A stretch of DNA of 64,000 bases from an uncultured bacterium (GTDB lineage Bacteria > UBA8481): the NCBI GenBank assembly GCA_964499705.1, contig CAZCME010000013.1:45217-109216 (forward strand), written 5' to 3'. This document shows positions 32,242-59,506 of this stretch, in pieces (positions within the stretch are counted from its first letter, which is position 1; each line of letters begins with the position of its first letter). The notes beneath the pieces were generated by a model. That model saw only the letters and a list, made by a program, of their open reading frames with translations. It was not told the DNA's origin and ran no database searches. The translations under genes were made by a program, and so were the position numbers.

Positions 32242-32649
32242 TTGAGCAAGCCCTCGACCGTCCTCGCCGTCGACGCCGGCACGGTCCGGATCGGCTTGGC
32301 GATTTCCGACGAGACCGGCACGTTTGCATTTCCCCTCGAAGTCATCCCCGCAAAAAATGCGATTGCGCGAATCAAGGCGCTCTGCGAGGAGCGCACGGTG
32401 ACGCAGGTGATCGTGGGACTGCCGCTGACGATGAAGGGAGACATCGGCCCCGAAGCCGCGCGTGTGGAGAAGTTCATCCGGAAACTTCAGCGCGCTCTTC
32501 AACCCCTGCCCGTGACCGCCGTCGATGAACGGCTCAGTTCACTCGTGGCGGACCGTATTCTCGAATCCGGCAAGGGACACCCAAAGCGCGACGCCGTGGC
32601 GGCGGCGGTGATACTGGAGAGCTATCTGAAGACGATCAATGACAAATGA
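32242..32649 (+). CDS. ruvX: Putative pre-16S rRNA nuclease / Holliday junction resolvase-like protein (RuvX/YqgF)
   Basis: 135-aa ORF (TTG start in track) with VLAVDAGTVRIGLAISD... and VIVGLPLTMKGDIGPEA; canonical position downstream of alaS. Confidence 0.8.
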   Translation: MSKPSTVLAVDAGTVRIGLAISDETGTFAFPLEVIPAKNAIARIKALCEERTVTQVIVGLPLTMKGDIGPEAARVEKFIRKLQRALQPLPVTAVDERLSSLVADRILESGKGHPKRDAVAAAVILESYLKTINDK

Positions 32650-32719
32650 CGAATGAACAACGACTGATGAACAATTCCTGATTGTTCATCAGTCGTTGTT
32701 CATTCGTCATTTGTCATTG
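32637..32719. terminator. Perfect 39-bp inverted repeat with 5-nt loop; candidate bidirectional terminator
   Basis: Arms 32637..32675 and 32681..32719 are exact reverse complements (loop TCCTG). The arms contain the last codons and stops of convergent ruvX and asnB, so both proteins end in NDK. Confidence 0.5.
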
Positions 32720-34617
32720 GAACCCTGGTCCGCAAACTGACGGTGCCATAGCTCCAGCATCAGAAGCGCCCAGAGACGGAAGGCATTATTGCGGCGACCG
32801 GCCTTGTGGTCATCAATGAGGCGTTCGATGACTTCGCGCTTGAAGTAGCCGCGCGCGAGGGAACCCGAGTCCAGGAGGATCTCGCGAATATATCCGTGCA
32901 GCTCGCCCTGGAACCAATGCGAAAGCGGAACGCTGAAGCCCATCTTTCTTCGATAGAGAATCTCATACGGCAATATTCCGTGATGCGCTTCCTTCAAAAT
33001 TTTCTTCGACGAGAACGCTCCGACTTTCCACGTCCGCGGCAGGGAAGCGGCGAACTCCATGATCGACGTGTCGAGGAGAGGCGATCGGGTTTCGAGCGAG
33101 ACGGCCATGGAGGCGACATCGACCTTCACGAGAAGCGTATCCGGCAGGTACATGAGCGTATCGGAACGGAGAACGCGGTCGACGAGATCGGCCTTGCGGG
33201 GATTGTCCCAGCCGTCGGTCATGAGACGGAGGAGATAATCGTCGGCGGAGTGGTTGCCGAGCCGGGCGCGAAATTCGTCGGAGTACATCTGTTGCCGCGC
33301 CTCGGCGTCGAAGTATGCGAAGATGCTGAGATTGAACTTGTCCGGAGTGCATTGCGAGGCTCGCGCGAAGCGGCGGATCTTCCTCGCGAGCGATCGGTTT
33401 TGCACTCCCTCGGGAAGCCATGACGTCGCTTTTTCCGTGAGCGAGCGTATGCCGGAGGTCGTGAGGCTGGAATAAAGCCCGTGCATGAGGAGCGCGCGGT
33501 AGCGCTCGTAGCCACCGAAGTATTCGTCTCCCCCGTCGCCGTTCAACGCCACCGTGACGCGCTGGCGCGTCATGCGGCTGACGTAGTAGGTCGGCAGGGC
33601 GGACGAGTCGGCGTAGGGCTGGTCGTAGTGCCAGACGAGCTTCGGCAGGATCTCCATGGCGTCCGGTTCGACGATGAATTCCTCGTGCTGCGTGCCAAAC
33701 TTCTCCGCGACCATCCGGGCATACTGGGTCTCGTTGAAATCCCTGTTCGGAAATCCGATGGAAAACGTTTTGACCGGCGCGGAGGATACTTCCGCCATGG
33801 CGGAAACCACCGCCGAGGAATCGACGCCTCCGGAAAGAAACGCGCCGAGCGGAACGTCGGATATGAGCCGGGCTTTTGTGGCGTCGACGATCAATTCGCG
33901 TAGCCTGATTTTCGCGTCGTCGTACGAGAGATCGGTCTTCCGGACCCAATCCGCCTGCCAGTAGGTTTCGATCTTTGCGCTTTCGCCTGTCCAGACGAGT
34001 CGCGAAGCGGGAGGCAGGCGATGCACGCCATTGAAGATGGTTTTCGTTCCCGGAATCGACTGATATGTAAGATACAGATCGATCGACTCCGGATCGATTT
34101 CGCGCGGGCAGTTCGGAAGCGTCAGGAGCGCCTTGATCTCCGACGCGAAGTAGATCCCCTCGGCGTCCTCGAACCAGTACACCGGTTTTTTGCCCGCGCG
34201 ATCGCGCGCGATGAGGAGCGAGCGATCCCGCGTGTTCCAGATCGCGAACGCGAACATGCCCCTCAGTTTTTCCGGAACGCGCGCGCCGAGTTCCTCATAG
34301 AGATGAACGATCGCCTCCGTGTCGGAATGCGTCCGAAATCGATGACCCCTGGATTCCAGATCCGGCCGCAGCTCGAGAAAGTTGTATACCTCCCCGTTGA
34401 ACGTGATCCAGACCGATTCGTCCTCGTTGGACAAGGGTTGCCTGCCGCCCTCGAGATCGATGATGGAGAGCCGGCGATGTCCAAGCCCACAGCCTTCCAG
34501 CGCGACGTGCCCTTCCCCGTCGGGACCGCGATGGACCAGCGTATCGGTCATACGTTTGAGAACGGAAACGTCGGGCTTGCGCCCATCTCGATAAACAATT
34601 CCAGCTATGCCGCACAT
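32707..34617 (-). CDS. asnB: Asparagine synthase (glutamine-hydrolysing)
   Basis: ORF 32707..34647 trimmed to Met 34617 so the protein begins MCGIAGIV (catalytic Cys2); PP-loop SGGVDSS; the upstream 10 codons of the track ORF are encoded by a repeat copy. Confidence 0.85.
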   Translation of the reverse strand: MCGIAGIVYRDGRKPDVSVLKRMTDTLVHRGPDGEGHVALEGCGLGHRRLSIIDLEGGRQPLSNEDESVWITFNGEVYNFLELRPDLESRGHRFRTHSDTEAIVHLYEELGARVPEKLRGMFAFAIWNTRDRSLLIARDRAGKKPVYWFEDAEGIYFASEIKALLTLPNCPREIDPESIDLYLTYQSIPGTKTIFNGVHRLPPASRLVWTGESAKIETYWQADWVRKTDLSYDDAKIRLRELIVDATKARLISDVPLGAFLSGGVDSSAVVSAMAEVSSAPVKTFSIGFPNRDFNETQYARMVAEKFGTQHEEFIVEPDAMEILPKLVWHYDQPYADSSALPTYYVSRMTRQRVTVALNGDGGDEYFGGYERYRALLMHGLYSSLTTSGIRSLTEKATSWLPEGVQNRSLARKIRRFARASQCTPDKFNLSIFAYFDAEARQQMYSDEFRARLGNHSADDYLLRLMTDGWDNPRKADLVDRVLRSDTLMYLPDTLLVKVDVASMAVSLETRSPLLDTSIMEFAASLPRTWKVGAFSSKKILKEAHHGILPYEILYRRKMGFSVPLSHWFQGELHGYIREILLDSGSLARGYFKREVIERLIDDHKAGRRNNAFRLWALLMLELWHRQFADQGSNDK

Positions 34618-34629
34618 GGGGGAAGAATA

Positions 34630-34657
34630 GGGGACATTCTCCAACATTCCAACATTG
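34630..34657 (-). repeat. 28-bp REP-like repeat, copy 3
   Basis: Exact GGGGACATTCTCCAACATTCCAACATTG; on the minus strand it ends 12 nt upstream of the asnB ATG. Confidence 0.8.
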
Positions 34658-34826
34658 AGGATGAAGGAGTTATGGAATTCATTCCTAAAGGAATCATGAA
34701 AAGTTCATCATCATCTCGCGGGAAAATGCATCTGGGATATTTTTCAAGGCTGGAATCGCTGAAAATAGGGTCCAACACGCGAATGCGTCTGAGTTTTCAT
34801 CGTTTCAACCCCGATAAAATCCAGAC

Positions 34827-35849
34827 CTAAACGACTAACTCCTGCTGCGTCAATGTTGGAATGTTGGAGAATGTCCCCCTGATTGCTTCGGCAAGGGCTC
34901 CTTTGCGCCTGTCTTTTCGCATGCGAGAAACGATCATCGAATAATAACCATTCGGGTGGCGATCGCCGTCCTCATGCTGGATACGGTCGTAGGTCCAGCG
35001 GGCCAGCTCATGCGCAATGTAGATCGTGAGTTCGCGGTGCATCGCCTCGATCGACGACCATGCCTGGCGGCGCATTTCGGATGTGGCCATGACGAACCGG
35101 TCGGCCATCTGCTGAAGATCGCTCCAGGACCACGACACGGCGTCGCGGTCCATCGTGCGTCGCTTTCTGGTTTCTTCGAACCGCTGACGGCGTTCCGTCT
35201 GGAGTTCGATACGCTTTCGAAATAGATGCGAGCTCATGAAACGGCCGTTATGGCCCTCGCGAAACAGTGTTTCGTTGGATTCTGCGTTGAGTTCATTGAA
35301 CCATCTGTCCAATACGCCCAACTGTTTAACATGATCGAAGGAGGAGATGTTCTTTCCGAAGAGTTGCTCGGCGAGCAGATGCCGGTCGACGCGATTTCTC
35401 TGGGTTCCCATGCCCAGCATTTCCCGCGCACTGCACCAAGGATAAAGAAGCGGATCGCGTACGAAACCGGCACGGACTGGATTGAGGATGATGTAGGCGA
35501 CGACGGTTTCAAAGTAGGACTCCGTCTCGATGACGAGCGACTTCGATCTGCCCTGGAAGAGGTGGCCGGTCCGGTCGTGGCGTCGGTTGAGTTCCTGAGA
35601 GGCGCGCGTCAAAAATCGCCGCAGGAATTCCGAAATGTCGCCGCCGGGCGTTCGAAGGCAGAAATGAAAATGATTCGGCATGAGACAATAGGCATACGTG
35701 ACGACGCGAAACATCTTTGCCGACTCGAAATAGAGATCGAGAAATCGACGGTAATCGGACTCGTGCTGGAAGAACGGGTGCTTGTCGACGAAGCGATTGA
35801 GGACGTGGTAGACGGCGTCCTTGTAGGCGATGCGTGGACCTCTGGACAT
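34827..35849 (-). CDS. IS200-like Y1 (HUH) transposase, REP-associated tyrosine transposase (RAYT)-like
   Basis: 340-aa ORF; HUH motif CLMPNHFHFCL and tyrosine motif VAYIILNPVRAGFV align by eye with the PEHMHCIW and YIYINPVK regions of E. coli RayT; N-terminal AVYHVLNR. C-terminal codons read through a repeat copy. Confidence 0.75.
   Translation of the reverse strand: MSRGPRIAYKDAVYHVLNRFVDKHPFFQHESDYRRFLDLYFESAKMFRVVTYAYCLMPNHFHFCLRTPGGDISEFLRRFLTRASQELNRRHDRTGHLFQGRSKSLVIETESYFETVVAYIILNPVRAGFVRDPLLYPWCSAREMLGMGTQRNRVDRHLLAEQLFGKNISSFDHVKQLGVLDRWFNELNAESNETLFREGHNGRFMSSHLFRKRIELQTERRQRFEETRKRRTMDRDAVSWSWSDLQQMADRFVMATSEMRRQAWSSIEAMHRELTIYIAHELARWTYDRIQHEDGDRHPNGYYSMIVSRMRKDRRKGALAEAIRGTFSNIPTLTQQELVV
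34851..34878 (+). repeat. 28-bp REP-like repeat, copy 4
   Basis: Exact CAATGTTGGAATGTTGGAGAATGTCCCC; inverted partner of copy 3 with a 193-bp spacer; lies inside the last ~17 codons of the transposase ORF. Confidence 0.8.
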
Positions 35850-36202: not shown

Positions 36203-36286
36203 TGTGGTCTCCTTTCGTGATTGAGTGTCATACAGAGCAGAAGTTGTGCCGGCAGAAGTGCTTATTTTCCAGCAAGAGCATATCCG

Positions 36287-36332
36287 GAAAAGTGTCGAAT
36301 CCTGGACACATGTCCAGAATTCGACACTTTTC
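36287..36332. promoter_or_regulatory. 46-bp imperfect dyad symmetry, candidate operator
   Basis: GAAAAGTGTCGAAT-CCTGGACA-CA-TGTCCAGA-ATTCGACACTTTTC; 14-bp outer arms perfect, inner arms 7 of 8; located ~85 bp upstream of the small gene preceding the transposase. Confidence 0.3.
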
Positions 36333-37627: not shown

Positions 37628-37655
37628 CAATGTTGGAATGTTGGAGAATGTCCCC
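37628..37655 (+). repeat. 28-bp REP-like repeat, copy 5
   Basis: Exact CAATGTTGGAATGTTGGAGAATGTCCCC ending 14 nt upstream of the STAS gene ATG. Confidence 0.8.
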
Positions 37656-50225: not shown

Positions 50226-51605
50226 ATGAATCATTCGGGCCGATCGCTTCTCCTTCTCTTCCTCCTGATCCTCTTCTCCTCCTGTACCCCCACAAGGCTC
50301 GCTGTCACTTCGACGCCGACCGGCGCCGTGGAAATCGACGGTCGCGAGCGAGGCATGACTCCTGTCACCATCGAAACCGAGTCGGGCCGGACGCACGACA
50401 TCGTCGTTTCGGCGGCGGGATACGAGAACTGGCGTTCCCGCGTCCGCGTCGAGCGGGACCAGGAAGTTCATGCGATCCTGACGCGCACACCTCCGCCCGT
50501 GACCGTCAAGGAAACCGTCGAAGTGCCGACCGCGTCCCGGACAAGGCTCGCGGTCTTCGTCGAACCGGACGGGGGCGAGGTCTGGGTCGATGGAAAGAGT
50601 CGCGGCATGGCCCGGGCCGACCGGCCTGTCGAGGTCGTGTACACGACGAATCCGACGCTGGCCGACGTGGTCGTGACGCGCGAGGGCTTCCGGAAATGGA
50701 CGCGGTCCGTGGATCTCGAATCGGGCCGCGAGAACCGCGTCATCATCCGCATGGAACCGCTCGCGGCCTGGTACACGTTCACCTCCGACGCGGAGATGCT
50801 CCGCAACACCGTCAGCCAGGTCGTATCCTCCACGGCGAACCTGCCATCCCTCGACCGATCTTCGAAAATCGCCGTGCTCTCCATCGCTCACGGCGAAGGC
50901 TCCGACGAGCCGCTGCAATCGCTCCTCGACGACGCCTTCATAACCACGCTCGCCCAGGCGGGATTTTCTCCGGCGGAAAACGACGACCACATGCTGGTGC
51001 AGCTGGCGCATTCCGCTTCCGGAGATTCCATCCCCATCAACGTGATCACGGACAACAAGGGCCCTGACCGGCCGTTCGTTTACGACGCGGAAATCGCGAC
51101 GAAGAGAACCGAGCGCGCGGTGGACGCCCTCCCGGTCACGATCACATCGAGCGTGAGAACGACAACCGAGGATGACGACGTGACGACGGAATCGACGACG
51201 ATCCGGACGGAAACGGTGATGAAGGAGCGGACGCGGCAGATTCCCATCACGGCTTACATTCCCACGGCCGACCAGTTCCTGGCGTATCGCGTCCTGGATT
51301 GCGGGATCTCCAAGACGCCGATCGAGGAGGGAGAAGCGCGCGAGGAGAACATGCTGTATCGCCGCGCCGAATTGCGCGTTCACCTGCGCGTCATCAACGC
51401 CAAGACAGGGATCATCACGTGGGCCGGATTCCTGACCGGGAGAACCGCGGATGAAATTCCCGTGCGCGTCAGCATGGACCTGGCGAATCCGCCGAACCGC
51501 ATGTATGCCGATCCGCTTCCGGACTCGTGGCAGAAATTGCGTCACCCTCCGTCCCGAAGGGTGAACATGGATGTACCGGCCGTCGTCTCCCCCACGCCGC
51601 GCTGA
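50226..51605 (+). CDS. PEGA-domain lipoprotein, paralog 1
   Basis: Signal/lipobox-like N-terminus (LLLLFLLILFSSCTPTRLA) then two PEGA-like beta modules (AVEIDGRERGMTPVT..., EVWVDGKSRGMAR...) and a C-terminal domain sharing blocks with the downstream paralog (KGPDRPFVYDA). Confidence 0.6.
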   Translation: MNHSGRSLLLLFLLILFSSCTPTRLAVTSTPTGAVEIDGRERGMTPVTIETESGRTHDIVVSAAGYENWRSRVRVERDQEVHAILTRTPPPVTVKETVEVPTASRTRLAVFVEPDGGEVWVDGKSRGMARADRPVEVVYTTNPTLADVVVTREGFRKWTRSVDLESGRENRVIIRMEPLAAWYTFTSDAEMLRNTVSQVVSSTANLPSLDRSSKIAVLSIAHGEGSDEPLQSLLDDAFITTLAQAGFSPAENDDHMLVQLAHSASGDSIPINVITDNKGPDRPFVYDAEIATKRTERAVDALPVTITSSVRTTTEDDDVTTESTTIRTETVMKERTRQIPITAYIPTADQFLAYRVLDCGISKTPIEEGEAREENMLYRRAELRVHLRVINAKTGIITWAGFLTGRTADEIPVRVSMDLANPPNRMYADPLPDSWQKLRHPPSRRVNMDVPAVVSPTPR

Positions 51606-51612
51606 ACTTTCT

Positions 51613-53151
51613 TTGAAAGTACTGCATCGCTCTCTTCCGGCACTTCTTCTTCTCGCGGCGTCATGCACTCCCACGCAACTCGCGATCTACTCCCGGCCGG
51701 GCGGAGCGGAGGTTTACATCGACGACAGGCTGTATGCGCGGACGGTGAACGAAGCGACGCCCGTGACGCTGGAAGTGCGGAGCGGAAAATATGGAGTGAG
51801 CATTCTGAAGGACGGGTATCACCCCTGGGCGCGGACCGTGGACGCCAAGCCCTACTCCGTCACTCCCGTCCTGGCCGACCTGGTCCCGATCGAACCCATC
51901 CGGACCTATGTGCCGATCGGGGCCGTCGAGATCCGCATTCATCCGGCGGGAGCGCGCGCCTGGCTAGACGGACAACTCCTGTCACAGCTACCGGAGAACG
52001 CGGGAGAACCCTTCATCATCGAGGGGTTGACGCCGGAGGCGCACGTCCTCCGGGTCGAACGGCAGGGATACGAGTCGGAGGAAACCCGGTTTGAAATCTT
52101 CTCGCAGCTCGTTTCGAACGTCACCCTGAGGCTGGAGCCTTTGAAGCCGTACTATGTCTACCCTTCGAACGACGATCTCCTGAGGAACGCGGCGGTACGC
52201 GCGCTTCGGGGAATCGCTCATCTGCCCGGGATGCGTTCCACGAAGACGATCGGCCTTGTGAGCCTTGACGGGGAAGCGGACGAACTGGACGGGCTCCGGC
52301 CGCTCGTGGAGGACGTGATGATCGCGGAGCTCGCCCGCAACGGCCGGGGCGTGGTCGAAAGGGAGAATCATCTCCTCGTGCGCCTCGCGCAGGAATCGGC
52401 GCGTTCCGATTCCTTCTCGCTCGAAGTGCTCACGAAGCACGGCGGGCCCGACCGGCCGTTCCTGTATGACGCGCGCCTCAAGTCAGCCGCGGACGCGATC
52501 GCGATGCTGGCGACGGACACGGCGGGGCGGGCGCGGCAGATCATCGTCCGCAATCGCGTCGAAGAACCGCTCGCGCATCTGAAGACCGCGGACCAGATCA
52601 TCGGCTATCGCATCGTGGAACGTTCGCTGCGATCCGATCCGATCGACGATCCCGGCTCGCCCGAGCCGATGATCCGGCGCGAAGCGATCATCCGCCTCTT
52701 CATCCGCTTCCTCGACGCGAAAACCGGAATTGTGCAATGGGCGGAACGTTTCGAGGCGTCAGTCGCGGACCGTGTGCCGCAGCGTGTGTACCGCTGGCTC
52801 GAGCATCCGCCCTCGCGCACGTACGCCTACGAGATGAAGCAGAAGCCCGGAAGGGACGCGCGCGAATCCCGGGATACCGCGGCGGCATCGCCCCCGATCG
52901 AATATTTCACCGAGGACGACCTGGGCGGCATCGGCGACCAGGATATCCTCTTCTGGTACTGGCGGAACATGGGCGAAGCCTATCTCCGTGCCGGCCGCTT
53001 CGGCGACGCCGCGCGCCACCTGCGGGAGGCCGTGGCGATCCGGCCGCTGGACTACGAATCAAGGATGCTCTACGCCGAATCGCTCCTGAAGAACGGTCAA
53101 TTGAACGAGGCGGGCCGTGAATACATCCAGGCCATGCGACGCATGGAATGA
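51613..53151 (+). CDS. PEGA-domain lipoprotein, paralog 2, with C-terminal TPR-like tail
   Basis: Track ORF 51571..53151 overlaps paralog 1; in-frame TTG at 51613 gives lipoprotein N-terminus LKVLHRSLPALLLLAASCTPTQLA. Shares CTPT(R/Q)LA, PEGA modules and HGGPDRPFLYDA with paralog 1. Confidence 0.6.
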   Translation: MKVLHRSLPALLLLAASCTPTQLAIYSRPGGAEVYIDDRLYARTVNEATPVTLEVRSGKYGVSILKDGYHPWARTVDAKPYSVTPVLADLVPIEPIRTYVPIGAVEIRIHPAGARAWLDGQLLSQLPENAGEPFIIEGLTPEAHVLRVERQGYESEETRFEIFSQLVSNVTLRLEPLKPYYVYPSNDDLLRNAAVRALRGIAHLPGMRSTKTIGLVSLDGEADELDGLRPLVEDVMIAELARNGRGVVERENHLLVRLAQESARSDSFSLEVLTKHGGPDRPFLYDARLKSAADAIAMLATDTAGRARQIIVRNRVEEPLAHLKTADQIIGYRIVERSLRSDPIDDPGSPEPMIRREAIIRLFIRFLDAKTGIVQWAERFEASVADRVPQRVYRWLEHPPSRTYAYEMKQKPGRDARESRDTAAASPPIEYFTEDDLGGIGDQDILFWYWRNMGEAYLRAGRFGDAARHLREAVAIRPLDYESRMLYAESLLKNGQLNEAGREYIQAMRRME

Positions 53152-53162
53152 AATCCACGCAA

Positions 53163-53194
53163 CCAAATCCCAAATCCCAAATCCCGAATCCCAA
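53163..53194. repeat. Tandem heptanucleotide repeat (CCAAATC, ~4.5 copies, one variant)
   Basis: CCAAATC CCAAATC CCAAATC CCGAATC CCAA in the intergenic region; an inverted complement TTGGGATTTGGATT occurs at 53267..53280 abutting the HD-GYP gene start. Confidence 0.7.
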
Positions 53195-53257
53195 CTTCTC
53201 CATACGGAAGCGGAAACGGGCCGGGCAATCTTCCTGCCTTGATGGTCGGAAACGGAA

Positions 53258-54427
53258 ATGTGTATTTTGGGATTTGGATTAATGTACACAGTCGAAGTGC
53301 GCGACGCGAAGGCGGGCATGACGCTCTCGCGGCCGGTCTTCACCCGGAACGGAAACCTGCTCCTCGATGCCGGCACCCGCCTCTCCGATCATACCCTCGA
53401 CCTGCTCGATCTCTGGGGCATCTTCGACATCCAGGTCGATTCGATCGACTCGCCTTCCGGTCACGCGCCCGCTCCCCGGCAGAAGAAAAAGTTCGATCCT
53501 GTGAAGCGCGAGGCCGAGAAGAAGCGAGTGGAGGATGTGGGCGGCTGGGTGCGCGATGAGATCGAGGGTCTCATGAAGCAGATGAATTCCGGGGGAAGGG
53601 ACATCGACATGGAGCGGCTCAAGGGAGTCGCGGAGTCGATCGTGGAGGAATCCATGAAGGACAACGAGCTGATGGTCTCCCTGACGACGCTCATGGACTT
53701 CGACAGCTATCTCTTCTCGCACGCCGTCCACGTCTCGATTCTCTCCGTCGTGATCGGCATCGCGATGGGCCTCACGCAGAAGGAAATCCAATCGCTGGCC
53801 ATCGGAGGAGCGCTCATCGATCTCGGAATGCTTAAGGTGGACCGGAAAATATGGGATAAGGACGGCGTCCTGTCGGAAGCCGAGTTCAACTTCGTGAAAC
53901 AGCATCCGCTCCTGGGATTGAAGGACGCCGAGCCGCACTGCCGGGGCGATGTGGCTTCTCTCCGGATCATCGCGGAGCATCACGAGCGGCTGGACGGATC
54001 GGGCTATCCCCGGAAGCTGCGGGACAAGGCGATTCATCCTCTGGCGAAGATCGTCGCCGTCTGCGACATCTATGACGCGATGCAGCAGCCCCGCGCCTAC
54101 AGGAAGAAGTGGCTCCCCTACCAGGTCATGGGCCATCTGCTCGTCTCGTCCACGGAGACCCTGGACGCGCAGGTTGTGAAGACTTTTCTCCGCACGATGT
54201 CCGCGTATCCCATCGGATCGTTCGTGAAGATGGATACCGGCCAGGTCGGCGTCGTCGTCTCCTCCAATCCCGCCAGCCCGATCCGACCTGTCGTGAAGCT
54301 CTTCCTGCTGGCTTCGGGAGAGACCATGGAGAAGCCGGAATTCGCGGATCTTTCCGCCGATAAGAGATTCATCATCGGACCGATCGATCCCCGCCAGATC
54401 CACGTCAAACCCTTCGATGTTTTCTAA
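53258..54427 (+). CDS. HD-GYP domain phosphodiesterase (c-di-GMP-type)
   Basis: HD motif (HAVHVS) and EHHERLDGSGYPRKL GYP signature. Alternative start at Met 53282 (MYTVEVRD...) would place the inverted heptamer segment in the 5' leader. Confidence 0.8.
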   Translation: MCILGFGLMYTVEVRDAKAGMTLSRPVFTRNGNLLLDAGTRLSDHTLDLLDLWGIFDIQVDSIDSPSGHAPAPRQKKKFDPVKREAEKKRVEDVGGWVRDEIEGLMKQMNSGGRDIDMERLKGVAESIVEESMKDNELMVSLTTLMDFDSYLFSHAVHVSILSVVIGIAMGLTQKEIQSLAIGGALIDLGMLKVDRKIWDKDGVLSEAEFNFVKQHPLLGLKDAEPHCRGDVASLRIIAEHHERLDGSGYPRKLRDKAIHPLAKIVAVCDIYDAMQQPRAYRKKWLPYQVMGHLLVSSTETLDAQVVKTFLRTMSAYPIGSFVKMDTGQVGVVVSSNPASPIRPVVKLFLLASGETMEKPEFADLSADKRFIIGPIDPRQIHVKPFDVF

Positions 54428-55966: not shown

Positions 55967-57933
55967 AGAAGGAGGATATTCGAAACCAGCTGCGAGGATT
56001 GCAGGCTCTGCAGGGGCTCGCGCCGTCGTTCCTCGACGAGATCGCGGAACTGGGGGTGGAAAGAACATACGCGCGCGATTCGATCGTCATATCCGAAGGG
56101 CAGGTCGTGGAACATTTCTTCGTGATACTCGGAGGACGGCTGCTGGCTCACTATGGCGACAAGGTTGTTTCGCACATGGAGCGAGGCGACACGTTCGGCC
56201 AGCTGAGCCTGATGGCGGAAGTGCCGTCGCTCGTCACCGTGAAGGTGCGGCACGACGCGCGGCTCCTGCACGTTCCGCGCAATCTCTTCCGGAAAGCGCT
56301 GGCATCGAGCCCGGAGTTCGCGGCGCAGATCTTCAAGGGTTCCGCCGCGCGCCTCGCGACGATCAACCAGGAGACGAGGACGCGCCAGCCCGTCATCGTC
56401 GCCGTGCATTCGGCGCCCGCGGGAGTCGGCAAGACGAAGTTCGCCATCAACCTGGCGTGCGCCATGGCCGCGGAAAATGCCGGCCGCGTGCTTCTTGTCG
56501 ATGTCGCCACGGAGAAAAAGCGCTTCATCGACATCTTCGGTTTCGGAGGATCTCTGCCTCTTGTCGATCTGCGGGACATCGAGACATCGAGCCGGGACGC
56601 GGTGCGGGAAAAAACGCGAAAGCACGATGCCGGGTTCGAGATACTCCGCCTGGCCCATCGCGGGAGCTCCGCGAGCGCGGACCAGACGCGCGAGGACGAG
56701 GCGGTCGCGCCGCTGCTTTCATCGCTGTCCCGGACATTCCATTACATCGTGACCGATCTGCCTCCGGTCATGGACGCGACCGTCTGGAAATTCCTGACGC
56801 ACGCCGATACCGCGATCATCCTGACGTCGGCCGAGCCGGTCCATCTCGCGCAAACAGCCAATCTCCTCGGAAAGCTGCCCGGCAAGGCCAGGGTCCTTGT
56901 GACGCGGGCCACGACCGAGCTCGAAGCCAAACGAGAAACGATCGACACCGCGCTCGGACAGCGCGTGGACGAATTCCTCGAGGAGCTCCCGGAAGGCGAT
57001 GAAATCGCTTTCATCTCCCGCCCGGGATCCCGCTACGCCTCGGCGGTACGCCGCCTCGCTCGCGGCATCCTCGGCCGGCTCGTGGGCCTGGCGCTCTCCG
57101 GAGGCGCCGCGAGAGGGATGGCTCACATCGGCGTCCTGAAGGTGCTGGAAGAGGAAGGCATCCGGCCCGATATCATCGCCGGAACTTCGATGGGGGCCCT
57201 GATCGGCGGGATGTGGGCGTCCGGGAGCAACGCGGCCGTATTGGAAAGGATCGCGCGGAGGATCCGACGGAGCGAGTTCTTCAGCATCTTCGACCTGGCC
57301 CTGCCGCCTTCGTCAGGGCTCCTTCGCGGCACCAAGGTCGATCACTTCATCCGCGGCGTCTTCGGCCAGAAGCGCTTCTGCGACCTTCTGATTCCGCTCC
57401 GGGTCATCGCCACCGACATCGACACGGGAGATCACGTCGTCTTCGATCACGGTTCCGTGGCCGACGCCGTCCGGTCTTCCGTGGCCATCCCCGGAATCCT
57501 GAAGCCGAACATCGTCGACGGCAGGCGCCTGACGGACGGCGCCGTCATCGCTCCCGTTCCCGTCGATACGCTGCGGGAGGCGGGCGTGTCCCGGATCATC
57601 GCCGTCAACGCGATTCCCACCGCCGAATGCTTCCGCGATTACAGCCGTTCGGCGATCCAGCCCGCGGCGGGACGGAGCGATTTTCTCGCGCGCCTCTTCC
57701 ATTTCAGCACCCGCGACGTGCCAAGCCTTCTCGATATCATCGTCCGCTCGAACCAGTTCATGGAGGCGGCGATCGCGGAACATTCCTGCCAGGGCGCCTC
57801 GGTCATCATCCGCCCGTGGCTCCCGGAACTGCACTGGATGGATTTCGACTCCGCGCCGCGCTTCATCGAGTCCGGCGTCAAGGCCGCCAGGGAGGCGATG
57901 CCGGAGATCAGGGAGATGATGAATGGGGGATAA
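55963..57933 (+). CDS. Three-domain fusion: cNMP-binding domain / ParA-MinD-like P-loop domain / patatin-like phospholipase
   Basis: ATG 55963 overlaps the comM stop (ATGA); the upstream part of track ORF 55522..57933 is out of frame. cNMP-binding (ISEGQVVEHFFVILGGRL...GDTFGQLSLM); P-loop AVHSAPAGVGKTKFAINLA with Walker B IVTDLPP; patatin motifs SGGAARG, GTSMG, TDGAV. Confidence 0.75.
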   Translation: MKKEDIRNQLRGLQALQGLAPSFLDEIAELGVERTYARDSIVISEGQVVEHFFVILGGRLLAHYGDKVVSHMERGDTFGQLSLMAEVPSLVTVKVRHDARLLHVPRNLFRKALASSPEFAAQIFKGSAARLATINQETRTRQPVIVAVHSAPAGVGKTKFAINLACAMAAENAGRVLLVDVATEKKRFIDIFGFGGSLPLVDLRDIETSSRDAVREKTRKHDAGFEILRLAHRGSSASADQTREDEAVAPLLSSLSRTFHYIVTDLPPVMDATVWKFLTHADTAIILTSAEPVHLAQTANLLGKLPGKARVLVTRATTELEAKRETIDTALGQRVDEFLEELPEGDEIAFISRPGSRYASAVRRLARGILGRLVGLALSGGAARGMAHIGVLKVLEEEGIRPDIIAGTSMGALIGGMWASGSNAAVLERIARRIRRSEFFSIFDLALPPSSGLLRGTKVDHFIRGVFGQKRFCDLLIPLRVIATDIDTGDHVVFDHGSVADAVRSSVAIPGILKPNIVDGRRLTDGAVIAPVPVDTLREAGVSRIIAVNAIPTAECFRDYSRSAIQPAAGRSDFLARLFHFSTRDVPSLLDIIVRSNQFMEAAIAEHSCQGASVIIRPWLPELHWMDFDSAPRFIESGVKAAREAMPEIREMMNGG

Positions 57934-58018
57934 ATACGAAGACACGAAGTTTGATATTCAACACAATTCTTTTGCTTTTCTCTTCGCGTCCTGGTGTCTT
58001 CGTGGTTAAATCCCACTC

Positions 58019-59506
58019 ATGATCTCCAACTGGAGCCGATTCACGGCGTGGCCGGCGCGCGAAATGAAGCGCCTCCAGGACCGGCTCCTCGTGGATTTCC
58101 TTCGCGAAGACCTCGTCCCGTTTTCCTCCTACTACGCGAAGCTTTTCGACGAGCAGGATATCGACGTGGATGAGATCAACGCGGTGTCCGACCTCGCGGG
58201 TCTTCCCTTCACGACGAAGTCGGATCTCATCGCGGCATTGGACGAAGATCCGCTCGCCTTCGTCCTCCGGCCGACCGCGGACCTGATCCGGGCTCACTGG
58301 CCCCTTGCGAGAAAGTTACCGCTCCTGGCGCGGAAGCTCTTCAAGGGCGAAGCCGATGTGAAGCGCGTCCTGGAGAAGGAATACCTGCCGATCTTCATGA
58401 CGGCAACGACGGGACGCGCGGCGAAACCCGTGTCGTTTCTTTACACGCGAGCGGACATGTATCGACTTCGCACGGCGGGGCGTCGCACCGCTGATGTCAT
58501 TGGCCTGACATCCGCGGATCGCTGCATCAACCTCTTCCCTTATGCTCCGCATCTCGCCTTCTGGCAGGTCGCCTTCGCGGGTTTCGAATCGGGCATCTTC
58601 ATGCTCTCCACGGGCGGCGGGAAGACCATCGGCACGGCGGGAAATATCCGCGCGATGGAAAAAGTGAAGCCCACGTGCCTCCTCGGCGTCCCGAGCTACG
58701 TGTATCACATCCTCCGATGCGCGGAGAAGGAAGGATTGAAGCTGTCGTCGATCAACACGATCGTGCTGGGCGCCGAAAAGGTGCCGCCCGGCCTGAAGGA
58801 ACGTCTCTCCGACCTGGTCGTTCGCCTGGGAGGAAAGCCGCCGCGCGTCGTGGGGACATATGGATTCACCGAAGCCAAGATGGCGTGGTCGGAATGCGAT
58901 GGCGGCACCCAGGGCAGGGAAAGTTCCGGTTACCATCTCTATCCCGACATGGAAATCATCGAGATCGTCGAACCGGAAACAGGCCGCGTCGTCGGCGAAG
59001 GCGAAAGCGGCGAGATCGTCTACACGTCGCTCGATGGGCGCGGCACGGCCGTGCTGCGGTATCGAACGGGAGACTACTGCGAGGGCGGAATCACGTATGG
59101 CCCGTGTCCTCATTGCGGCAAGACCCTTCCCCGTCTCTCCTCGAACATCACGCGTCTTTCGAACGTGAAGGATGTCAGCCTCACCAAGGTCAAGGGCACG
59201 CTCGTCGATCTGAATCACATCGCCTCGCTCCTGTCGGACGCAAGCGAGATCGAGGAGTGGCAGCTTGAGATATCGAAACTGAATGACGATCCGTCCGAGG
59301 TGGACGTCATGACGCTCTCCTTCACGCCCGTCGCGGGAGCGCGGATCGAGCCGAAGGAAATCTCCCGCAGGATCTTTGACGCCACGGAAGTGGCCTTGAA
59401 CAAGGTCGAAGTCCTGGCGCTTCCGGAGATGGTCGCGAAGCTGGGGCTCGAAACCGAATTGAAGGAGAAACGAATCATCGACCGCAGAGCGGAAGCGAAG
59501 AAGTAG
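58019..59506 (+). CDS. Phenylacetate-CoA ligase-like adenylate-forming enzyme (PaaK / F390 synthetase family)
   Basis: 495-aa ORF; N-terminal LAGLPFTTKSDL motif, TTGRAAKPV (AMP-binding P-loop-like), and C-terminal domain typical of PaaK-like ligases. Confidence 0.7.
   Translation: MISNWSRFTAWPAREMKRLQDRLLVDFLREDLVPFSSYYAKLFDEQDIDVDEINAVSDLAGLPFTTKSDLIAALDEDPLAFVLRPTADLIRAHWPLARKLPLLARKLFKGEADVKRVLEKEYLPIFMTATTGRAAKPVSFLYTRADMYRLRTAGRRTADVIGLTSADRCINLFPYAPHLAFWQVAFAGFESGIFMLSTGGGKTIGTAGNIRAMEKVKPTCLLGVPSYVYHILRCAEKEGLKLSSINTIVLGAEKVPPGLKERLSDLVVRLGGKPPRVVGTYGFTEAKMAWSECDGGTQGRESSGYHLYPDMEIIEIVEPETGRVVGEGESGEIVYTSLDGRGTAVLRYRTGDYCEGGITYGPCPHCGKTLPRLSSNITRLSNVKDVSLTKVKGTLVDLNHIASLLSDASEIEEWQLEISKLNDDPSEVDVMTLSFTPVAGARIEPKEISRRIFDATEVALNKVEVLALPEMVAKLGLETELKEKRIIDRRAEAKK

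Follow-up and report, generated by a model that had tools for sequence, protein, structure and literature searches.

A G/C-rich heptamer repeat and its inverted partner in the spacer upstream of an HD-GYP gene of an uncultured Hydrogenedentota bacterium

We analyzed a heptanucleotide repeat located upstream of a gene for an HD-GYP domain protein in an uncultured bacterium (UBA8481; assembly GCA_964499705.1). The window, i.e. the whole stretch of DNA that was analyzed, comprises 64,000 nucleotides of contig CAZCME010000013.1 (positions 45,217 to 109,216 of the forward strand), and coordinates given without a locus name refer to it. We found that both the repeat and its short inverted copy are real, non-random and far beyond chance. 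The pair is, in our judgment, probably a G/C-rich heptamer simple sequence repeat (SSR) of the G3N4 type, similar to the short tandemly repeated repetitive (STRR) sequences, in the form of a "convergent pair" and placed in a lineage-specific spacer of a tight five-gene cluster.

Anatomy of the array and its inverted partner

The array consists of three CCAAATC units, the single variant unit CCGAATC and a terminal CCAA. Tandem Repeats Finder assigned to it a period of 7, 4.6 copies of the unit CCAAATC, 92% matches and a score of 57, making it the top-scoring short-period array of the window. A perfect 12-nt inverted partner, corresponding to 1.7 units, fits two registers of the array exactly (53163-53174 and 53170-53181) and a third one with one mismatch, and it lies 72-91 nt away. 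When one mismatch was allowed and both strands were considered, the 12-mer CCAAATCCCAAA occurred four times in the window, each time at the array/partner site, compared to a mean of 0.24 occurrences in shuffled sequences, none of which (0/100) reached four. The pattern CCCN4CCCN4CCCN4CCC has a single match in the 64 kb versus 0.02 expected. On the minus strand, the array displays exactly four phased GGG tracts with 4-nt loops, built from three GGGATTT units and one GGGATTC unit. Its first base is located 11 nt past the stop codon of the upstream gene. The array occupies the positions 88-119 nt 5' of the ATG at 53282, and the partner ends 4 nt 5' of the same ATG. The features of the region are as follows:

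53163..53194, plus strand: (CCAAATC)x4.6 heptamers in tandem, C-rich when read along the sense strand of the two neighbouring genes (Tandem Repeats Finder)
53169..53192, minus strand: four GGG tracts, canonical G-quadruplex motif GGGATTCGGGATTTGGGATTTGGG, on the template strand if the operon is transcribed (sequence pattern only)
53266..53277, minus strand: inverted partner, the plus strand of which reads TTTGGGATTTGG; covers a weak Shine-Dalgarno (SD)-like GGGA at 53269-53272
53195..53265, no strand: non-repetitive interior of 71 nt between the arms
53205-53216 and 53247-53258, no strand: direct repeat CGGAAGCGGAAA/CGGAAACGGAAA inside the interior (repeat search)
53224-53237, no strand: weak sigma-54-like core GGCAATCTTCCTGC (core pattern match)
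53239-53244 and 53263-53268, no strand: sub-threshold sigma-70-like pair TTGATG/TATTTT with an 18-nt spacer (read by eye)
51571..53151, plus strand: upstream neighbour, gene with PEGA and TPR domains (Pfam PEGA and TPR), stop codon TGA at 53149-53151
53282..54427, plus strand: HD-GYP domain gene, 381 aa, motif HHERLDGSGYP (Pfam HD_5, 3e-21)

The first-pass annotation had left open which ATG of the HD-GYP gene is used; the real start is ATG 53282 and not 53284. The ATG at 53282 is used by the gene calls on three independent assemblies, and MYTVEVRDAKAGM, read from this codon, aligns with the N-terminal sequences of four orthologues (MNQIEVREAKPGM and similar). The protein that would begin at the upstream ATG 53258 has no record on exact-sequence look-up, and this codon is without support. 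With the real start at 53282, both the partner and the array are located outside the open reading frame (ORF). The tandem repeat and its inverted complement near the HD-GYP start were correctly recognized in the earlier annotation. The complement of 14 nt given there is an inverted copy indeed, although its perfect part is limited to 12 nt, the outer GATT being unpaired save for an isolated A-T pair. It was also said to abut or overlap the start, of which the adjoining position remains and the overlap with the ORF does not.

The PEGA/TPR and HD-GYP genes are both encoded on the plus strand and are separated by 130 nt. This spacer is the sole sizeable gap of a five-gene cluster with the order PEGA, PEGA/TPR, HD-GYP, Mg-chelatase-like and cyclic nucleotide monophosphate (cNMP)/patatin, in which the remaining junctions are tight. 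An identical HD-GYP protein is annotated in a Candidatus Hydrogenedentota metagenome-assembled genome (MAG).

Conservation of the spacer and generality of array-partner pairs

Variation of the repeat number, proposed in the first-pass annotation as a check, was not seen when we compared the window with three other assemblies (two from ENA, one from Logan): the spacer region is identical in all of them, with an unchanged number of repeats. All assemblies derive from Hainich groundwater well H51 and therefore sample one population, so that this is a weak test and weak evidence against such variation. The next homologue is only 61% identical, no closer relative being present in the databases, which makes a strain-level comparison impossible, and an exact look-up of the upstream PEGA/TPR protein for further assemblies of the spacer returned no record.

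We additionally examined four orthologous loci (L124-L127), the proteins of which are 52-61% identical. All of them keep the five-gene order described above. The spacer between the PEGA/TPR and HD-GYP genes measures 226 nt in L124, 81 nt in L125, 7 nt in L127 and 4 nt in L126, and neither a CCAAATC repeat nor an alignment to the window spacer was found in any of these four spacers. The spacer of the window is thus not conserved among the four loci. The gaps of 4-7 nt in two of the relatives suggest that co-transcription of PEGA/TPR and HD-GYP is the normal state and the window spacer a derived one. At the same junction, ~145 nt of different sequence are inserted in L124 (2275-2500), including the inverted repeats ATTCCCGC/GCGGGAAT and CGAAAGCGGGAATCCA/TGAATTCCCGCTTTCG, which indicates that the PEGA/TPR-HD-GYP junction tolerates or attracts palindromic sequence. 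The interior of the window pair, CTTCTCCATACGGAAGCGGAAACGG, has no match in JGI metagenomes.

As a separate observation on these relatives, L124 (2275-2500) and L125 (2420-2500) share a conserved promoter-like sequence, TTGCTCATCGC.CGATTT.TGGTAAACCTCGTC, located 10-45 nt 5' of the HD-GYP ATG.

The generality of such pairs was assessed in a survey in which one genome per species was scanned for the 19-mer CCAAATCCCAAATCCCAAA, yielding at least 120 loci. The listed loci (L004-L123), to which the following counts refer, total 823 kb from ~110 genomes of many phyla; having been chosen for a heptamer array, they are enriched for heptamer-rich genomes. They include Acidobacteriota, Planctomycetota, Bacteroidota, Cyanobacteria, Chloroflexota, Verrucomicrobiota, groups of the candidate phyla radiation (Parcubacteria and relatives), Xanthomonadaceae and others, and the exact CCAAATC array is present in several of the cyanobacterial genomes. 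Of the 123 arrays, 20 have an inverted partner with at most one mismatch in 12 on their downstream side and 13 on their upstream side, at no more than 300 nt (~27%), compared to only 3/123 at a control distance of 1-1.3 kb. Long imperfect hairpins with heptamer-array arms and unrelated interiors occur among these loci, many of them directly after a stop codon.

A period of seven dominates the short arrays of these loci. Arrays of at least 2.7 copies numbered 266 for period 7 versus 24, 27 and 34 for periods 6, 8 and 9, respectively. More than 500 nt away from the selected arrays, the numbers were 112 versus 21, 19 and 32, i.e. period-7 arrays are 3- to 6-fold more numerous even far from a selected array. 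A partner within 300 nt was likewise found for 43/158 unrelated arrays of period 7, 9/27 of period 8 and 8/34 of period 9, which amounts to about a quarter for periods 7-9, compared to about an eighth for period 6. An inverted partner near tandem arrays of period 6-9 is therefore common in the bacterial loci examined.

The arrays adjoin stop codons (~33 within 40 nt) more often than start codons (~14), although the crude greedy ORF calls behind these two counts are noisy: the repeat is open in six frames, spurious ORFs arise in high-GC genomes, and the window itself was mis-called. Since none of the six frames is closed by a stop codon in the CCAAATC array, ORF finders read across it. In viral contigs, the CCAAATC unit had 20 matches versus 24, 13 and 24 for three composition-matched heptamers; as this is no higher than the controls, we do not claim that the unit is favoured.

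Some loci of the survey contain more elaborate arrangements. L054 (7007-8000; Flavobacteriaceae MAG OY970287) harbours a higher-order satellite with a unit of ~99-141 nt in more than seven repeats, each unit being a mosaic of the heptamer arrays TTTGGGA, TTTGGAA and ACGAGCG. Very long CCAAATC/GGGATTT arrays were observed in L110 (3069-3319, Desulfonema magnum chromosome; 251 nt), L023 (5215-5336; 122 nt, extending to the contig end) and L018 (2460-2551; 92 nt).

Relation to described repeat classes

The anatomy of the array matches the class of G-rich heptamers described in Xanthomonas and Nostoc in all features except the literal unit, as judged from the sequence. Rehm et al. 2015 (PLoS One, PMC4692102) described GGGAATC repeats in Xanthomonas and GGGGA(C/T)T repeats in Nostoc, which are mostly intergenic and mainly located between aligned ORFs, no more than 50 bp from where an ORF ends. 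They prefer four units, the fewest that allow an intramolecular G-quadruplex, and form quadruplexes in vitro in a K+-dependent manner. They also favour the non-coding strand at sites upstream of ORFs, and each Xanthomonas genome contains ~190 arrays and 70-75 convergent inverted pairs. No regulatory role was identified in that study, phase variation was held unlikely, and an association with mobile elements was not found; three heptanucleotides in Calothrix PCC7601 are also cited there (PMC4692102).

The window array shares with this class the head-to-tail heptamers with a G3 tract, a 4-nt A/T-rich loop and four tracts in total, the intergenic position between aligned ORFs (11 nt from an ORF end), and a convergent inverted partner able to form a stem-loop. 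As in the described class, there is no link to a class of genes. In contrast to it, the G-rich strand of the window array is the non-coding strand downstream of an ORF, which is the less favoured orientation in PMC4692102; the host is a Hydrogenedentota MAG, and the G-quadruplex is known here solely as the motif G3N4G3N4G3N4G3. What is new is a new unit and a new phylum, Hydrogenedentota, for an already described and widespread heptamer class.

The array also resembles the STRRs in being made of tandem heptamers in non-coding DNA. The unit of the cyanobacterial STRR1 is reportedly CCCCA(A/G)T, and CCCAAAT of the window is one base from CCCCAAT. STRRs, however, are highly abundant genome-wide families of heterocystous cyanobacteria, whereas the window array is a single copy in 64 kb of non-cyanobacterial DNA. 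A further likeness exists to the intergenic TAACTGA direct repeats of Beggiatoaceae, Cyanobacteria and Bacteroidetes (MacGregor 2015, PMC4679880), which are also short arrays of one heptamer in distantly related phyla. They comprise 2-6 copies, lie within a few nt of start codons and are suspected of a post-transcriptional role, with one indirect repeat in 170 sets (PMC4679880). Their unit is unrelated and unable to form a G-quadruplex and, unlike the window pair, they are almost never inverted. Repetitive extragenic palindromic (REP) elements, bacterial interspersed mosaic elements (BIMEs) and transposable elements of the miniature inverted-repeat type (MITEs) are similarly extragenic and hairpin-forming and occur after stop codons and between cistrons; the window pair differs from them by the lack of a conserved interior and of a target-site duplication, by unequal microsatellite arms and by the absence of multiple copies in the window. 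A literature search for the literal repeat string retrieved no relevant paper.

In the explanation that we favour, replication slippage would have generated the array, and duplication or template switching its partner, with the pair being tolerated rather than selected as a dedicated switch. An origin by slippage in a variable intercistronic spacer that tolerates the repeat is the most likely one. Several points weigh against this explanation. The right arm lies exactly on the initiation region, where a translational operator would sit. The units GGGATTT/GGGATTC are neither GGGNATC nor GGGGA(C/T)T, GGGATTT being one substitution from GGGGATT. One array in 64 kb roughly fits a density of 1 per 27 kb, but the genome-wide abundance cannot be verified from a stretch of this length. 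The orthologues are distant (at most 61% protein identity), so that a young, lineage-specific regulatory role may still exist despite the non-conservation. Finally, L124 independently gained its different palindromic insertion at the same junction, and the site could favour a hairpin.

Predicted effect on translation and competing explanations

If the PEGA/TPR and HD-GYP genes are co-transcribed, the arms would form a 12-bp helix, with a structured loop of ~90 nt enclosed by it and the nucleotides from -16 to -5 at the HD-GYP start hidden in it. This burial would modestly lower HD-GYP translation or uncouple it relative to that of PEGA/TPR. Owing to the extra registers of the array, the pairing would withstand a ribosome that terminates 11 nt upstream: such a ribosome would reach approximately the first helix pair, and since a second register is available, translation of the PEGA/TPR ORF should not open the helix. 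On the basis of the folding model, the most probable effect of the pair is that, within a polycistronic mRNA, the initiation region of HD-GYP would be modestly masked by structure.

Thermodynamic folding predicts that the right arm pairs with the array with a probability of 0.97 if the array is transcribed, and the energy of the arm duplex was estimated at ~ -16.7 kcal/mol. The mean unpaired probability of 53266-53277 is 0.03 in the presence of the array, compared to 0.67 for a transcript starting after it. Opening of the region from -16 to +3 is predicted to cost 10.2 kcal/mol at 37 °C with the array versus 4.9 kcal/mol for a transcript starting after it, and 16.6 kcal/mol with the array at 10 °C. 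The SD-like GGGA is fully paired in the predicted fold, and the AUG is mostly unpaired (0.55-0.79). When seven other gene starts of the window were treated likewise, 3.1-13.6 kcal/mol was obtained, a range that includes the value of the HD-GYP gene, and the fold of the whole leader is unremarkable (z = -0.94). The pairing envisaged in the first-pass annotation, which had called for a structure prediction of the leader, is reproduced in silico, which supports its reading in part. Masking by pairing is physically plausible and, in energetic terms, unexceptional.

Elsewhere in the window, a long RNA hairpin was predicted at 57912-58027 (minimum free energy of -46.9 kcal/mol, z = -3.17). The end of the cNMP/patatin gene, from the last codons to the stop codon (TAA 57931-57933), lies in its left arm, and the ATG of the next gene (58019) in its right arm, a predicted layout that would suit translational coupling.

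We also searched the leader for other signals. No intrinsic terminator was found in 52900-53500, where a G+C-rich stem followed by a U tract is missing (the helix is followed by AUUAAUG), and the same region had no Rfam match at E <= 1 on either strand, so that readings as a terminator or as an RNA of an Rfam family were discarded. No sigma-70 promoter was detected around the array at the scan threshold, and no hexamer pair flanks it. The sigma-54 core GGCAN6YTGC has five matches in the window versus 3.4 expected, which is not significant alone; the candidate sigma-54 promoter in the spacer (53224-53237) was set aside on this ground and for being weaker than two convincing ones elsewhere in the window. 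If the sigma-54-like or the sigma-70-like motif of the spacer were used, the array would not be part of the mRNA.

The two convincing sigma-54-type promoters are located at 2424-2445 on the plus strand (TGGCACAATGATTGCT, followed by GGAGG and an ATG) and at 36237-36332 on the minus strand (GGCACAACTTCTGC, followed by AGGAG and an ATG). A 22-bp palindrome, GAAAAGTGTCGAATCCTGGACA/TGTCCAGAATTCGACACTTTTC, which resembles a site for an enhancer-binding protein, is found ~40-90 nt 5' of GGCACAACTTCTGC.

We considered four further explanations, which are given in the order of falling likelihood: riboregulation, transcription control by a G-quadruplex, phase variation and origin from a MITE. The first, dedicated post-transcriptional control, is unlikely. 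In this case, the transcribed array would act as an arm against the ribosome-binding site (RBS) that sequesters the HD-GYP initiation region, with the outcome set by melting, cleavage or repeat number. The predicted pairing of the arms and of GGGA, the doubling of the opening cost by the array and its further increase at 10 °C are consistent with such control, as is the end of the partner 4 nt from the ATG. The closest functional precedent is hmw1A of Haemophilus influenzae, whose transcript includes the (ATCTTTC)n repeat of the 5' untranslated region, base-paired to a G-rich right arm (Rapun-Araiz et al. 2025, NAR, PMC12721329). The long hmw hairpin has ten repeats in its left arm and is cut by RNase III; the repeat number varies in populations, with at least 11 repeats in nature, and heptamer SSRs drive the phase variation of hmw (PMC12721329). 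The window resembles hmw1A in having a heptamer SSR upstream of a gene and a G-rich right arm next to its start. In contrast to the ten-repeat left arm of hmw, the window helix comprises 12 bp from an array of 4.6 units, without variation seen and with a pairing that is predicted if the array is transcribed. Dedicated control is further disfavoured by the unexceptional opening cost and z-score, by the dependence of the pairing on transcription that starts upstream of the array, by the absence of the element from all four orthologous loci, two of which have spacers of merely 4-7 nt, and by an array-partner layout that is generic for tandem arrays in the listed loci.

Somewhat less likely still, the element might act at the level of DNA. 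The template strand would fold into a G-quadruplex, or array and partner into a cruciform, and this structure would impede or modulate RNA polymerase, either between the PEGA/TPR and HD-GYP genes or 5' of an internal promoter, thereby setting the ratio of the two halves of the operon. The minus strand with its four G3 tracts and 4-nt loops would suit this idea, and so would the four-unit preference, the in vitro quadruplexes of related units and the non-coding-strand position upstream of ORFs in PMC4692102. Moreover, array numbers among the listed loci fall sharply beyond four tracts (46, 34, 10 and 3 arrays with 3, 4, 5 and 6 tracts, respectively), although this distribution is biased by the search pattern. 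On the other side, a quadruplex of GGGATTT is proposed from the motif, the related repeats have no identified regulatory role (PMC4692102), and the array lies 88 nt from the start, outside 50 nt.

A bolder proposal, drawn by analogy, is that array and partner constitute an SSR-based translational operator of a cyclic di-GMP (c-di-GMP) phosphodiesterase, comparable to hmw, and, more broadly, that intercistronic array-partner pairs after stop codons form a pan-bacterial class that sets operon ratios and is tunable by unit number. We regard this as quite improbable. Nothing in the analysis shows control of the HD-GYP gene by the repeat.

Phase variation, i.e. a contingency locus in which HD-GYP is switched via promoter spacing or frame as 7-nt units are added or lost by slipped-strand events, is very improbable. 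The tandem repeat is perfect to near-perfect, and heptamer SSRs have this function at hmw of H. influenzae (PMC12721329). However, the array is located outside the ORF and cannot shift the frame, contrary to what the first-pass annotation had considered, and a change of spacing by slippage, also considered there, finds no sigma-70-type promoter with spacing to alter. The array has just 4.6 units, one of them a variant, and is identical in the window and the three assemblies. To our knowledge, the HD-GYP gene is not a typical contingency gene. For the G-rich heptamer class as a whole, phase variation has been argued against (PMC4692102).

Least probable of all is a MITE or REP-like mobile element with the heptamers as terminal inverted repeats (TIRs), which we rejected: inverted termini do enclose ~115 bp, the spacer is lineage-specific and the window contains genuine MITE-like elements whose TIRs carry tandem octamers, but the ends lack a target-site duplication, the arms differ in length (32 nt versus 12 nt), neither arm nor interior has a second copy within the window, the interior is without a match in JGI metagenomes, the interiors between such arms are unrelated in other phyla, and the heptamer class is not associated with mobile elements (PMC4692102).

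Other inverted elements of the window and significance

Other inverted elements with short-tandem-repeat arms are present in the window. The MITE-like elements (2201-2323, 34630-34878 and 37628-37653) have a perfect 28-nt TIR, GGGGACATTCTCCAACATTCCAACATTG, which contains the tandem octamer TCCAACAT twice. The set comprises two complete copies (~123 and 249 bp) and a solo right end, the left end of which is degenerate at ~37520; the 26-mer of these elements occurs five times versus 0 expected. In addition, a perfect 39-bp hairpin with a 5-nt loop, formed by CAATGACAAATGACGAATGAACAACGACTGATGAACAAT and its complement, is located at 32637-32719, where the minus-strand ORF 32707-34647 has its 3' end. 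Its arms consist partly of heptamer-like units (AATGACA).

Overall, the architecture upstream of the HD-GYP gene is of a described, generic repeat type that is not specific to this gene, a point that the first-pass annotation had missed. At face value, the locus is another heptamer repeat of the STRR-like type, here in the uncultured phylum Hydrogenedentota. The survey is more useful than the locus itself: among the listed loci of many phyla, approximately a quarter of the short-period arrays have a nearby inverted partner, with period 7 being dominant, and this extends the observation made in Xanthomonas and Nostoc. As array-partner pairs are generic, they should not be taken as gene-specific switches without further evidence. 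If the pair did prove to be an operator, it would be a simple, tunable device by which genes of one operon, here one that controls c-di-GMP turnover, are uncoupled.

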